From NCBI GenBank assembly GCA_019058275.1, contig JAHLVW010000099.1:16321-80320 (forward strand): a stretch of DNA of 64,000 nt, written 5' to 3'. This document shows, one piece after another, positions 13,422-22,140 of the stretch. The notes beneath the pieces were generated by a model that saw only the letters and a program-made list of their open reading frames with translations, had not been told where the DNA came from and ran no database searches. The stretch is from Candidatus Heimdallarchaeota archaeon. GTDB taxonomy: Archaea > Asgardarchaeota > Heimdallarchaeia > JABLTI01. Both the position numbers and the translations under genes were made by a program. Each line of letters opens with the position of its first letter. Within the stretch, counting starts at the first letter, position 1.

Positions 13422-14456
13422 CTATTTGTATGAACACTTTTTCCTTTTAATAAGAACAATGCTTACGAAAATTGGGAAAGAAATAATGGTAATAATGATT
13501 CCTAATGAAAGTTTATTAATATCTCCAACTACAATAGTTGTAATATTAGTGTAAAGATATTCGTTCCAAAATAGATCAGTAATTTCAAGGTCAACAGAAT
13601 ATAAGCCATCATCTGGTTCAGTGAAAAGCACAGAATAGTTATTGTCCATTTCTGGATCTTGCAAAGCTAAAGCAATTGGGGGAGGAAGTGTATCATCATC
13701 AGAAGAGATAAGATTTAGTATTGCTTTTACATCTCTTAGTTTAGATTCATCGGTAATGTTGACTGTTAACAATCTCGAGAGATTTTCAAAAGCTTGCACT
13801 TCAATTATCCCTATTTCTGGTTCAGTATCTTCATAGCAGCCAATAGCTTGTGTCATAGCAATATACATCTCTCTTAGATAAAACTGTGTAGAAGAACAAG
13901 TAACAATATTTCCACTTATAATTGGAGAAACATTTGAAAAGAAAGTTGCACCTGCTGCTGCATATTCGGATGCATAATCTGAATGACCGGTAACATTTTT
14001 ACCATTTATAACATTTGCAGCAGCTAGAACTCTAACTGCTCTGCACCAAGCACTGATAATAACGCCAGTATCAGAAGCTGTTTTGATTTTATTCAAAATA
14101 TTATTTTGGTTAGCCATTAGATTTTCATGAGAACTACCAGGTAAAATATTTATGCAATCATAGGCTGAAGTAGATATCTCCGAGAAAAGATAATCAACTT
14201 CAAATTCAGCACTATTGTATTCACAACCAGTTAATGTTTCGACTGGACCTGCTGTATCCACAGTCCAACCAAATTCATCAAATTGGTTTAGCATAGGTAG
14301 ATAATTAGCTCCAAAATTATTATCCATTAGAACGAGTATAGTTACATCATTTGTACTGATTTTTGTTGTTGTTCCTTGAGATATATCTTTGATTGTATTT
14401 GGGAAAACTATCAATATAATTAATAAGATTATTGAAAAAAAAGTTCGTATCTTCAT
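13422..14456 (-). CDS. secreted, membrane-anchored DJ-1/PfpI family protein
   Basis: Signal peptide, ILPG, SAWCRA nucleophile elbow, GKNVTG, C-terminal TM followed by KRKK. Confidence 0.8.
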   Translation of the reverse strand: MKIRTFFSIILLIILIVFPNTIKDISQGTTTKISTNDVTILVLMDNNFGANYLPMLNQFDEFGWTVDTAGPVETLTGCEYNSAEFEVDYLFSEISTSAYDCINILPGSSHENLMANQNNILNKIKTASDTGVIISAWCRAVRVLAAANVINGKNVTGHSDYASEYAAAGATFFSNVSPIISGNIVTCSSTQFYLREMYIAMTQAIGCYEDTEPEIGIIEVQAFENLSRLLTVNITDESKLRDVKAILNLISSDDDTLPPPIALALQDPEMDNNYSVLFTEPDDGLYSVDLEITDLFWNEYLYTNITTIVVGDINKLSLGIIITIISFPIFVSIVLIKRKKCSYK

Positions 14457-14652
14457 ATCAACCGCCTTTTTTTAGGTATATAAACTAATGAAGTTTATAT
14501 TTAAATTTCTTCTCATACAGATGAGAATTGTTTCTTAATGTGGAAATACTTCATTTTCGAAAACATTTCAGACTATTAGTGCATCAACTTAGAGACTAAA
14601 ATATAGTATCAGGAAGGATTTACAAACAAAACTAGTTCCAACTGAAGGAACT

Positions 14653-14704
14653 AAAACCGGATGGAGGTAAACAAACTCCCATCGTTGTAGAAGAAGGTTT
14701 TAAG
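14653..14704 (-). repeat. cassette-boundary hairpin element, copy 1 (most degenerate tail)
   Basis: AAAACCGGATGGAGGTAAACAAACTCCCATCGTTGTAGAAGAAGGTTTTAAG; stem GATG/CATC is compensatory relative to GACG/CGTC. Confidence 0.8.
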
Positions 14705-14902
14705 TGGGGGGAGAATACTAGAAATTTTCTTTTCTGAAATGTAGGCATTTAGTAATTTATTTTTTATTGTAAATCATAGTAAAAATTGTTCGGAACAGTT
14801 TCTAAACTATCATTAGAGATGTTTTAAAGAAAATAATGAGTATATATTATTCAAGAATTAAATAAAAAGAAGGCAAATTTAAAAAAAACATGAGGAAAAG
14901 AA

Positions 14903-16159
14903 ATGAGAGGTAAAAACTCGATCACTGTTTTGATGATAATATTATTTCTTTCGATAAATAGCTTACTAGTAGCTGGTTATGATAATAATAGAAGTGAAAG
15001 TGCTAAACCAAATAATATAATGGTAACTTACGCTTCTATATTTAGTGTAAAAGATGATTATCTAATGATTTCAGATGATGTTATGATGGGTGGATCTCAA
15101 CCAAGAGATTTTTGGATTTTAGATTATAGCAATCCAAACAAAACAGAAATCATCGGAGGATATCTCCTAAATTCTAGTGGATATTTACTATCAATGAGCA
15201 CTTTTGGTGATTTGTTATTCTTATTGTGCAAGTATGATGACCCCTATTATGCAACAGGTTTTGAAATTGTTAATATAAGTTCAATAGACTCTCCAGAATA
15301 TTTAGGACATTACGTAGCAAACGACTCATATGGATGGTGGCATGATCCTAGATATAATAGTCTAGAATTACTTCGATTCAAAGATAATTACGTTTTTATG
15401 TATACATCGTTAGTAACTTCAGAAACTCAACAAATCAGAATTATTGATTGTCAAAATATGACTAATATAACAGAAGTTAATACAATTGCATCCACAAATA
15501 GGATTTTAGATTTTGATATTAAAGATGATATTATGTATATCAACCAAGTAGAAAGCAAAATGGAGATGATTAATATAAGTGACATAACAAATCCAACCAA
15601 AATTTCTTCTTGGAATTCAACTGGTACCATAAGTATGGATATTTATGAAGATAGACTCTATTTATTCAACTTTGACGAACGAAAATTAGATATTTATAGC
15701 TTAGAAAATGCTACAAATCCAGAATATATCACTACAATAGAAAAGGATGAAAATACCCAATTCTTTGTAACAAATCTAGTATTCACAGATGAATATTGTT
15801 TTGTAATAAGTGAAGATATGGTAGATATTTTAGATATCTCAGATTTAACAATTTTAAATAGCTATAAAGTAGAAGATTATATTTTAGAAGATGAATATGG
15901 GGGCTTTTTCTACGGACAAGTAGGAAATGAAAAATTGTTTGTTGCTAGAGAGTCTAACAAATGGGGTTTAACCTTATTTGTAATAGGTTTTTCAGATATT
16001 AATAATTTAGAAACTTGGATACCATATTGGACACCAACATCTCCAATAGCAATAACTCCAATGATTTATGGAATAATCATTAGCACTTGTTTGTTGACAA
16101 GTATGTTCATTAAGAAAATAGCTCAAAGAAAGGGAAAAACAAAGGAGAGGAAAGAATAA
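14903..16159 (+). CDS. secreted LVIVD-repeat beta-propeller protein, membrane anchored
   Basis: Repeated (I/L)-x-D/N-I-S-x-P motifs (ILDYSNP, IVNISSIDSP, INISDITNP), signal peptide, C-terminal TM and basic tail. Confidence 0.75.
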   Translation: MRGKNSITVLMIILFLSINSLLVAGYDNNRSESAKPNNIMVTYASIFSVKDDYLMISDDVMMGGSQPRDFWILDYSNPNKTEIIGGYLLNSSGYLLSMSTFGDLLFLLCKYDDPYYATGFEIVNISSIDSPEYLGHYVANDSYGWWHDPRYNSLELLRFKDNYVFMYTSLVTSETQQIRIIDCQNMTNITEVNTIASTNRILDFDIKDDIMYINQVESKMEMINISDITNPTKISSWNSTGTISMDIYEDRLYLFNFDERKLDIYSLENATNPEYITTIEKDENTQFFVTNLVFTDEYCFVISEDMVDILDISDLTILNSYKVEDYILEDEYGGFFYGQVGNEKLFVARESNKWGLTLFVIGFSDINNLETWIPYWTPTSPIAITPMIYGIIISTCLLTSMFIKKIAQRKGKTKERKE

Positions 16160-16213
16160 CCACACAATGAATATATCAAAAAATACTTAGCTCAAAACCA
16201 ATAACACAGAATT

Positions 16214-16262
16214 AAACTGGTCGGAGGTAAACCAGTCCACGTCGTGGGAAAAGGAAGTTAAA
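16214..16262 (-). repeat. cassette-boundary hairpin element, copy 2
   Basis: AAACTGGTCGGAGGTAAACCAGTCCACGTCGTGGGAAAAGGAAGTTAAA. Confidence 0.8.
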
Positions 16263-16319
16263 ATGTACAGATTTAAAATTCAGATAATTAAAAAAATAAA
16301 AGAAATATTCTTACTAGAT

Positions 16320-20787: not shown

Positions 20788-20889
20788 AATATCTATTTCT
20801 AAAGTGTTTCAGTAATATAAAATTATTCAGACCAATCTTGGATTAATAAATCAATAAAAAAACAGTCGCAAAACCAAAAGCACAGAATT

Positions 20890-20939
20890 AAACCGGACGA
20901 GGGCAAACCAACCCCTGTCGCGGGAAAAGGGGAGTTTAG
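20890..20939 (-). repeat. cassette-boundary hairpin element, copy 5
   Basis: AAACCGGACGAGGGCAAACCAACCCCTGTCGCGGGAAAAGGGGAGTTTAG. Confidence 0.9.
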
Positions 20940-21071
20940 ATGTTTGTATGTTCGATAAAAACTACTATTTTGTTCTTTCACATCAAAATAGAACCCACGA
21001 ATATGTATTCTTCTTTATCTTTAATTAAACAAAATTAGCAAAACAGTTACGACAAGATACTTATTACGAAT

Positions 21072-21416
21072 TTATTGCCAAAATCGAATTGCATCTTTTT
21101 GCAATATTAATAAAAAGTGTTGAGAGAGGTTATATTTCCATTCATCTAGCAAGTCTATTAGCCTAGGTTGAATGAAATTAATAATTGCTGGTTCAATTGC
21201 TAAATAAATAACTTGAATTTTATGTTTTTTCCAGAGAAAGGTGAAATCCTTATCACGAGTAACAAAAACATAATTATTTTATTTCACCATATTCGATAGC
21301 TCACAGTTCTTAATACCAGACCAACCTTCTGTTTGAACAGTAGTACAAAATAAACCATGATCGTCAAAAATTTTTTTGAGTTGTAGTGGAACGTTTTCAT
21401 CTAGTAGAAACTTCAC
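21072..21416 (-). pseudogene. DUF5615 PIN-like toxin with a premature TAA at codon 46 (absent from the ORF track)
   Basis: GTG start overlaps the antitoxin end. Translates as MKFLLDENVP...GWSGIKN...MVK*NNYVFVTRDKDF...FWQ over 115 codons; TAA at 21279-21281. Confidence 0.85.
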
Positions 21417-21648
21417 TTTCTTTAGAACCATAAATAACAACCTCACCTGCAATCATTTCTTTAGCATATGTGATTATCTCTTGAATATCTTCTCGAGTAA
21501 TGGTAGGAAAATTTGCTAATATTTCTTCAAAGCTTTTTCCTTCTTTTAACCAATCAAGAATATCTAACACTAACACTCGAGTACCTTTAATGGTAGGTTG
21601 TCCTCCGCAAATCTCAGGATCGCGGACAATACGTTCAAATTTGCTCAT
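21397..21648 (-). CDS. DUF433 family antitoxin
   Basis: RIVRDPEICGGQPTIKGTRVLV...G.S.EEIL..FP.IT.EDI. Confidence 0.93.
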   Translation of the reverse strand: MSKFERIVRDPEICGGQPTIKGTRVLVLDILDWLKEGKSFEEILANFPTITREDIQEIITYAKEMIAGEVVIYGSKESEVSTR

Positions 21649-21786
21649 ATGAATTCCACTCTAATATACTAATAAGCAACTTGCCTTAAATTAATACCTT
21701 TCTTTTGCATAACAAAATTATTACGAGAGAGCAAAGAATAGGTTTGAACCCCAAGAAACAAAACTCAAAACCATTTTAGTCAAATC

Positions 21787-21836
21787 AAAACCGGACGAGG
21801 GCAAACCAGCCCCCGTCGCGGGAAAAGGGAGTTTAA
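21787..21836 (-). repeat. cassette-boundary hairpin element, copy 6 (best-paired)
   Basis: AAAACCGGACGAGGGCAAACCAGCCCCCGTCGCGGGAAAAGGGAGTTTAA. Confidence 0.9.
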
Positions 21837-22140
21837 ATAGGGGAGAGAGGTTTATGGGGTAGAGGCTTAGGGTATTAAAGAATTAGTAACCTAAACCTCT
21901 AACTTTTCTTTAGTTCTATACCTTAAAAAACTTTTGGAAATAACTTGCTTTTTCCGTTTTTTAGCGGAATTTTCTCTTTTCTCATATCAATTTTTCCCCA
22001 TGTTTTTTTTCTATAATTTTTATCTGTTTTTTCTTTTTTTCTTGTATATTCATTTATTTTTCAATTTAATCCATTTTTTCTAATCAATGAAAAAAAGTTA
22101 TGGAGAAAAGGAATCAATTCATTCCTATTTCTCTTTTGTA

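Follow-up and report, generated by a model that had tools for sequence, protein, structure and literature searches.

The tandem ssrA islands of Dehalococcoides span many kilobases and are associated with a 20-bp repeat, an integration module with a CcrB-like serine recombinase (DsiB) being present in 16 of the islands (McMurdie et al. 2011, PMC3146451), while cis-mobilisable elements (CIMEs) are decayed integrative and conjugative elements (ICEs) or integrative and mobilisable elements (IMEs) which accompany a functional, integrase-encoding element (PMC5704250). On the comparison made here, the ssrA islands, together with cis-mobilisable elements, appear to be the closest published case to the locus described below, which lies in a 64,000-nt window (the whole stretch of DNA that was analysed; positions 16321-80320 of contig C94) of the Candidatus Heimdallarchaeota assembly G000 (4.12 Mb, 118 contigs, 93% complete). 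Five blocks of accessory genes are stacked in this window behind a predicted small RNA gene, each block being followed by a spare copy (about 78 bp) of the 3' tail of that gene, and we consider it likely that such blocks have been gained and lost by recombination at the tails.

A repeat search identified a co-oriented unit of 51-78 nt in six copies, at window positions 14653, 16213, 16943, 19621, 20889 and 21787, with a pairwise identity of 65-86% among the copies. The initial annotation of this DNA had listed six same-strand copies there, and this was borne out both by the repeat search and by a covariance model built from the six copies (R1), which scored all of them at 70-86 bits (E-values of 1e-15 to 1e-19). 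The next-best match to R1 in the window reached 18 bits, in agreement with the earlier statement that no further copies are present in it. The 48-mer that had been quoted as the common sequence was recovered exactly in the last copy (21788-21835), which was its single match in the window at up to 3 mismatches, but the other five copies have diverged from it.

When the whole assembly was searched with nhmmer, these six were the only strong copies, all in one 7.2-kb cluster on one strand; a weak match on contig C22 turned out to be a paralogous RNA gene. R1 also recognised the element in relatives: of 11 further family members 9 had it, and among 139 genomes from other families of the class there was none that did. 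A covariance-model scan of the genome and its relatives had been proposed in order to tell an array from scattered copies, and in both the copies were clustered and co-oriented. A dispersed repeat of the repetitive extragenic palindrome (REP) or miniature inverted-repeat transposable element (MITE) type was accordingly rejected, given a single same-strand cluster of strong copies in 4.1 Mb and like clustering in the relatives. The repeated unit was found to be about 78 nt, longer than first described, because a CTCAAAAYC box approximately 27 nt upstream (plus strand) belongs to it; AAAC...GTTT ends are kept in the repeat and a foldable middle can be drawn. The original description, an unrecognised hairpin element of about 50 nt, was right in that no Rfam family matches it, but the element is not autonomous, as it corresponds to the duplicated 3' tail and trailer of an RNA gene.

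A non-coding block of approximately 170 nt adjoins the cupin-side copy of the repeat in eight genomes, regardless of which gene comes next. When this conserved block and the copy are read together as one compact RNA gene (type A; Table 1), the sixth copy becomes the true 3' end of that gene (its last ~50 nt, 21787-21837) and the other five therefore become spare ends of about 78 bp. The gene is laid out as a 5' stem-loop of 10-12 bp, an invariant, single-stranded, C/U-rich linker of 38 nt (CCCCAUAAACCUCUCUCCCCUAUUUAAACUCCCUUUUCC), a terminal hairpin of 12 bp with one G.U pair and one bulged C, and a U-run. The 5' stem-loop lies about 20 nt downstream of a TATA-like box, and a box of this kind was found 20-27 nt upstream of the 5' stem in all four paralogue types. 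Further upstream is a hairpin whose 5-bp TTCCG/CGGAA arms are invariant in 7 of 8 genomes and whose loops vary. On the other side of the gene, a GATTTTGA(G)-like box follows the terminal hairpin in every paralogue type and in most of the spare tails.

The fold z-score of the 118-nt RNA was lower for the minus strand (-6.1) than for the plus strand (-2.6). G.U pairs, which would be A.C mismatches on the plus strand, were present in 4 of 8 5' stems and in 8 of 8 terminal hairpins, together with compensatory changes. Across all repeat copies G.U and A.C counts were similar (21 versus 23) and showed no strand bias, so that strand is informative in the intact genes only and not in the spare copies. 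RNAalifold, run on 8 type A genes, undercounted the covariation of the 5' stem because two of the sequences were shifted; each 5' region was then folded separately, and all 32 distinct 5' regions folded to a stem at one position, with 12 or more different stem sequences. On the basis of structure, covariation and promoter position, it is predicted that the minus strand at this site encodes a lineage-specific, dumbbell-shaped small RNA of about 118 nt.

Screening against Rfam 15 returned nothing at E<=10 over window positions 12000-24000 and nothing relevant at the type B-E RNA genes (E<=1), in line with the initial annotation, which had called the element unrecognised. The signal recognition particle (SRP) RNA and the RNase P RNA are located elsewhere in G000 (on C74 and at C22:3491, respectively). 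A small open reading frame (ORF) downstream of the terminal copy was set aside, as it is not conserved and reads ATG GGG TAG in G000. Potential targets complementary to the invariant linker, searched in one strand orientation, were limited to chance-level matches of 13 nt or less.

With R2, a model covering the entire gene, full-length RNA genes were detected in each of the 12 family genomes, at 2-5 per genome; among 71 other genomes of the class, this model gave only three 24-bit matches and no credible RNA gene. When one genome for each of 185,579 species was scanned for exact motif matches, the only matches were to metagenome-assembled genomes (MAGs) of this Heimdall group; the titles of the matching records were mostly Heimdallarchaeota, with three records named Promethearchaeati and one MAG labelled Bathyarchaeia. 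A scan of IMG/VR for the tail motif gave 0 matches. At least four paralogue types were distinguished, each with its own TATA-like box at a like distance and a different 5' stem, and all with a common linker and hairpin. The type B paralogue of G000 lies outside the window (C22:147359-147484, minus strand) and has no detected spare tails next to it, while the G005 orthologue (on C77) has four. No description of this small RNA or of such arrays was found in the literature searched, and, judged from its sequence distribution, the family appears to be previously undescribed and restricted to one family of Heimdall-group Asgard archaea. As a separate observation, the type A gene of G006 (locus L046; G006:C60, 9670-9965) is inverted relative to both conserved flanks and contains a palindromic insertion of 26 nt within the otherwise invariant linker.

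Each spare tail consists of about 12 nt from the end of the linker, followed by the hairpin, the U-run and then a trailer of about 30 nt with a GATTTTGAG box. Over all fetched loci, 33 full genes and 40 tails were found with nhmmer. Homology to the gene starts between positions 66 and 76 of the gene hidden Markov model (HMM) in 34 of the 40 tails and ends at positions 119-123; the modal start is position 73, between ..AAC and UCCC, about 12 nt before the hairpin. This sharp 5' edge is alike in arrays of type A and type B, both of which occur in several species. In the window, the likeness of the most distal tail to the gene reaches approximately 20 nt deeper into the linker than that of the other tails. 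Without exception, the tails lie 3' of an intact gene and on the same strand, as was observed in G000 (C94), G004 (C242), G005 (C77 and C142/C121), G007 (C142 and C238) and G009 (C14), and the polarity is alike on the metagenome contigs L096, L100 and L113.

Arrays of the window's type share one chromosomal locus between conserved flanks. The flanks are syntenic between species, yet the locus holds from 0 to 7 tails and different genes, such that species with approximately 85%-identical flanks have wholly different blocks and in two genomes (G008 and G010) the type A gene stands without any tail. A comparison of cassette content, also proposed at the outset, thus showed that content differs between species at one hypervariable locus. 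A block encoding a 627-aa protein (F25) is 97.8% identical over 2,037 nt in G005 and G007, whose flanks are 84-86% identical, and it is the first block of one array but the fourth block of the other. From metagenomes of a single study, the locus was recovered both in an empty form (L093/L105), in which the gene is directly followed by a region X, and in an occupied form (L100/L117), in which a 1.9-kb block carrying a 315-aa ORF, and after it a tail, separate the gene from region X. Region X is 100% identical over 9.5 kb between the two forms and the upstream side is 95.5% identical; both forms were found together in one metagenome sample.

Three comparisons were informative as to where the exchanged segments begin and end. 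In the empty/occupied pair, the loop and trailer of the gene-proximal copy are specific to the block while the distal tail is that of the empty site, and the break is therefore placed 5' of the hairpin loop. The two F25 blocks share a segment that opens about 10 nt past the upstream hairpin and closes where the downstream hairpin ends, which places the break within ~10 nt 3' of the hairpin on either side. In a 200-aa block also present in L116, body and tail have been inherited together, with homology ending just before the next tail.

Since the repeat is the duplicated 3' tail of the RNA gene, the array is read as the product of tandem accretion at the 3' end of an RNA gene and not as an integron. 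Blocks would enter and leave via recombination inside the tail: a circular or foreign DNA with one copy of the tail would recombine with the tail of the gene, as islands do at the ends of tRNA and tmRNA genes, and the intact gene would be restored while the older tail is displaced outward. Given such displacement, the array would grow from the gene outward and its distal, older tails would decay. Of about 40 blocks that were examined, none has a recombinase gene, and in this respect their behaviour is that of integron cassettes or cis-mobilisable elements; a recombinase might act on them in trans. Such an enzyme might insert the blocks at a core formed by the hairpin DNA (12-bp inverted arms with a loop of 5-7 nt) and/or by the sharp 5' edge of the tail, after which homologous recombination between tails would shuffle blocks and exchange them between arrays and species. 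That the edge is common to the arrays of two paralogues points to a site-specific step. We give this combination, a trans-acting site-specific recombinase with secondary homologous shuffling, slightly less than an even chance.

Several observations weigh against accretion of this kind. With respect to the enzyme, the integron integrase model TIGR02249 gave a best score of 48 bits against a cut-off of 265 in the 12 genomes of the family (MAGs 64-93% complete). Six genes with a PF00589 domain are present in G000, none of them on C94, and no such gene is on the array contigs of five relatives. A tblastn search with ORFs of at least 150 aa from 18 integrase loci, the integrases included, revealed no integrase homologue in about 70 array loci. 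Recombinases of the Y1/HUH, IS110-type and large serine classes (PF01797, PF01548 and PF07508) were not detected in the 93%-complete G000; two small resolvases are encoded on unrelated contigs. The statement in the initial annotation that the window has no integrase therefore holds, and likewise for 16 kb of the contig upstream, but the driver that it proposed, a tyrosine recombinase or HUH nuclease, was not found, with no Y1/HUH gene in G000, no IntI in the 12 genomes and no tyrosine recombinase on the array contigs. Nor was a functional partner element seen in any genome or metagenome contig. A family of tyrosine-recombinase-like proteins of 481 aa is a weak candidate for the enzyme; it is genus-restricted, being present in 4 of 12 genomes (in G000 on C20, C36 and C78), and was not found in G005 or G007, which have the largest arrays.

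A related observation concerns G000:C36:88335-91028, a 2.7-kb unit that lies between the copies of a perfect 19-bp direct repeat and contains a tyrosine-recombinase-like gene of 483 aa together with a 323-aa ORF. There are three paralogues of this tyrosine-recombinase-like gene in G000 (on C20, C36 and C78; 33% identity), and only this genus was matched with the query.

Further points on the same side come from the cassettes and from the dynamics of the locus. The zinc-ribbon gene of cassette 4 has a 75%-identical copy in G005 with no flanking tails. Similarly, a methyltransferase gene family (F2), which is a tail-bounded cassette in both orientations in G005, G007 and G004 (L043/L039/L045), also occurs with no tail in G000 (window 8560-9117, plus strand) and in G004. 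The array of the window was unchanged in a 99.6%-identical strain, in which one contig spans it, so that turnover must be slower than that divergence. Contigs of four DNA runs showed no tail-to-tail joints, excision junctions or circle junctions over window positions 11000-26000. Two joints with inserted letters (13400>21264 and 21943>14854) were set aside as probable chance matches in AT-rich sequence, as they are not at tails. Finally, the break points in the three comparisons described above fall within the tails but not at one position. Non-coinciding break points of this kind are explained by homologous exchange no less well than by a fixed crossover, and scattered break points taken with the missing enzyme point to homologous exchange.

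A rival reading is an exchange with no recombinase at all. In such a process the ~78-bp tails would be portable homology only: direct repeats would loop out a circle with the cassette and one tail, which could re-enter at any RNA-gene tail in the same or another species, and the 3'-end polarity would arise because only insertions that keep the gene intact survive. About 70 array loci have no recombinase of the tested classes nearby and those of G000 show no linkage to the arrays, break points differ from event to event, and the switch in identity between L093 and L100 from 95.5% to 100% falls exactly at the RNA gene, as a homologous crossover between diverged strains predicts. A like layout is seen behind the unrelated 23S rRNA tail of G000, which makes a sequence-independent process economical. 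However, the sharp 5' edge of the tails in both type A and type B arrays is not expected from independent founder duplications, homology alone leaves the acquisition of tails by new genes unexplained, and tails within one array, being only 65-86% identical over 50-78 nt, are a poor substrate for homologous recombination. On balance we regard a wholly recombinase-free exchange as rather unlikely.

The initial annotation had interpreted the locus as an integron-like array, and clustered, co-oriented single-gene cassettes, a toxin-antitoxin (TA) cassette among them, at a locus that varies between species are indeed what an integron, or a cluster of attC sites lacking integron-integrases (CALIN), with an unusual lineage-specific attC and an IntI encoded elsewhere would present. 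The AAAC...GTTT ends and foldable middle fit this too, and integrons, mostly as integrase-less clusters, are reported from about 8% of Asgard genomes (PMC9668308). Nevertheless, the whole putative site is homologous to the 3' end and trailer of an RNA gene that also exists without arrays, and no IntI was found in the 12 genomes. The genes show no orientation bias relative to the repeats (about 12 versus 13 over 7 arrays), and by inspection the spacers are asymmetric (0-1 versus 9-12 nt) with no RYYYAAC/GTTRRRY boxes, a non-canonical geometry that had been pointed out earlier and was found again. The repeat motif was also absent from three text-format supplementary files of the archaeal integron paper (PMC9668308). 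With regard to the defining features of integrons that were tested, variability of the cassettes alone was observed; IntI, attC geometry and co-orientation with an attI promoter were not, and an RNA gene with its own putative promoter occupies the place of attI/Pc. With regard to elements at RNA-gene ends, an intact gene at one end and direct repeats of its 3' segment in the orientation of the gene were both found, and a cognate integrase was not. A true integron or CALIN is thus hardly credible here. It is also very improbable that the tails are regulatory or terminator modules, or selfish REP/MITE repeats spread through a variable region, and not recombination junctions. On its minus strand each tail has a GC-rich hairpin and U-run resembling a terminator, the plus strand has a TATA-like TTTAAA, and some cassette genes occur elsewhere with no tails, all of which such a role would accommodate; yet within a genome all copies are confined to one or two clusters immediately downstream of the parent RNA gene and always share its strand, they bear no consistent relation to gene orientation, and homology between genomes breaks at them. 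Tandem accretion of blocks behind the RNA gene remains the reading adopted in what follows.

Coordinates of the RNA gene, its upstream and downstream elements, the spare tails and the cassettes are collected in Table 1.

Table 1. The small RNA gene, its spare tails and the cassettes between them, in window coordinates
Feature	Position	Strand	Basis or remark
TTCCG-N8-CGGAA hairpin	21952..21969	.	about 25 nt upstream of TATA box; type A genes of 8 genomes
TATA-like box TTTTTTAA	21923..21930	-	about 20 nt upstream of 5' stem of RNA gene; putative promoter role
Predicted intact small RNA gene, type A, ~118 nt	21786..21903	-	fold, G.U pairs, homologues in 12/12 family genomes
Trailer of intact gene with box GGTTTTGAG (RNA sense) ~25 nt past hairpin	21760..21785	-	within duplicated unit
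Cassette 1: DUF433 antitoxin-like gene (21397-21648) and PIN-like DUF5615 toxin gene (21072-21452)	20940..21759	-	Pfam; read-through translation
Spare tail copy 1, nearest the gene	20862..20939	-	R1 73.7 bits; nhmmer, gene HMM positions 73-122 only
Cassette 2: phosphotriesterase-family gene (19828-20787)	19672..20861	-	PF02126, E=6e-41
Spare tail copy 2	19594..19671	-	R1 81.7 bits; HMM 73-122
Cassette 3: family-5 extracellular solute-binding protein (17592-19397)	16994..19593	+	PF00496, E=1e-38
Spare tail copy 3, 5' segment most decayed	16916..16993	-	R1 70 bits; R2 positions 82-124
Cassette 4: 168-aa membrane zinc-ribbon protein (16320-16826)	16264..16915	-	zinc-ribbon matches sub-threshold only
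Spare tail copy 4	16186..16263	-	R1 71.3 bits; HMM 73-122
Cassette 5: 418-aa protein, no recognised family (14903-16159)	14704..16185	+	no Pfam match
Spare tail copy 5, most distal	14626..14703	-	R1 71.1 bits

As the initial annotation had noted, each interval holds one module, either one gene or one TA pair, in mixed orientation. Its domain calls were upheld by Pfam for the solute-binding protein, the phosphotriesterase and the DUF433 and PIN-like proteins, while the 418-aa ORF, formerly called an LVIVD propeller, had no Pfam match and the 168-aa protein, formerly called a TM-RING protein, is a membrane zinc-ribbon protein and not a RING protein. The DUF5615 toxin gene has one in-frame TAA after about 57 codons, followed by approximately 68 more open codons, and its DUF433 partner is intact. 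Across the arrays, the genes in the blocks are accessory in nature and include those for a Ras-like GTPase, alpha/beta hydrolase, ParE toxin, flavin reductase, short-chain dehydrogenase, GNAT, MarR-like protein, beta-propellers and methyltransferases. In the F2 family, homology stops at the tail edge, an observation that may bear on how cassettes form or lose tails.

One conserved flank of the locus (window 23948-33888) encodes a cupin, a THEP1-type NTPase, a zinc-ribbon protein, a GNAT protein, a GH31 enzyme and an EAP30/Vps36-like protein, and the other (window 1107-5431) consists of the families F17-F19 and F13. The EAP30/Vps36-family (ESCRT-II-like) gene at 28965-30014 (minus strand) is consistent with an Asgard genome. 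A DNA period of 135 nt in 7 copies at 22651-23661 (minus strand) was found to be the coding repeat of an FG-GAP/beta-propeller protein (22141-23835), outside the array.

A second set of repeats in G000 derives from the 23S rRNA gene. About 50 matches to its last ~80-100 nt plus trailer were found on C98 (102650-128741), C35, C38, C75, C80 and C99, and most of them end at one base. The small-RNA tail and the 23S tail have no common motif, and no cassettes are common to the small-RNA array and the 23S-tail arrays of G000, distant paralogues only being observed. The small-RNA arrays differ from the latter in that their anchor is a different RNA gene family, of which two paralogues have arrays. 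We suggest, tentatively and with doubt, that Heimdall-group archaea may possess a general gene-capture platform that docks integrase-less, single-gene cassettes at the 3' ends of stable RNAs (23S, 16S and small RNAs), through either a recombinase of a class not yet recognised or a dedicated process based on homology, as an independently arisen functional counterpart of integrons. On this reading the small RNA itself might also be more than a passive target, for example in site recognition.

The locus adds a strongly conserved new family of predicted small RNAs in the Heimdall group, which is counted among the closest archaeal relatives of eukaryotes. Together with the 23S-tail arrays, it would indicate that small accessory genes are stockpiled and exchanged at the ends of RNA genes with no visible integrase, which bears on gene acquisition in Asgard archaea. 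If the enzyme is indeed new, or the process purely homology-driven, this would be a mechanism of gene capture apart from integrons, transposons and classical integrative elements.

In comparison with known systems, the array resembles sedentary chromosomal integrons and archaeal CALINs (Ghaly et al. 2022, PMC9668308) in having mostly single-gene cassettes, including TA cassettes, between co-oriented folded repeats; it differs from them in the lack of IntI, attI, attC box geometry and orientation bias, and in a repeat that is derived from, and contiguous with, an RNA gene. The elements HeimM2 and HeimV2 of Ca. Heimdallarchaeum (Wu et al. 2022), as described in the passages of PMC8813620 that were searched, likewise place mobile DNA right behind an RNA gene (16S rRNA) in the Heimdall group. 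Unlike the small-RNA array, they are single elements of 8 kb and 44 kb with mobility-type genes of their own, and those passages contain no mention of tail repeats, cassette arrays or a small-RNA target. With CIMEs (PMC5704250) the array shares integrase-less blocks that keep attL/attR in tandem at the 3' end of an RNA gene, where an incoming element uses an att site that includes the gene end; unlike CIMEs, it has no functional partner element in sight among the array genomes or metagenome contigs. As in the ssrA islands of Dehalococcoides (PMC3146451), tandem blocks lie downstream of one structural RNA gene, the boundary of each block is either that gene or a direct repeat of the gene's 3' end, and content is hypervariable between strains; some of the ssrA blocks also have no integration genes and have been read as cis-mobilisable. 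The present array differs from those islands in its ~78-bp repeat, which includes the trailer, in its one-gene blocks of 0.7-2.7 kb, with no recombinase in any of about 40 that were examined, and in its target, which is not tmRNA but a new small RNA with several paralogues. The small-RNA anchor for such cassette arrays is new.

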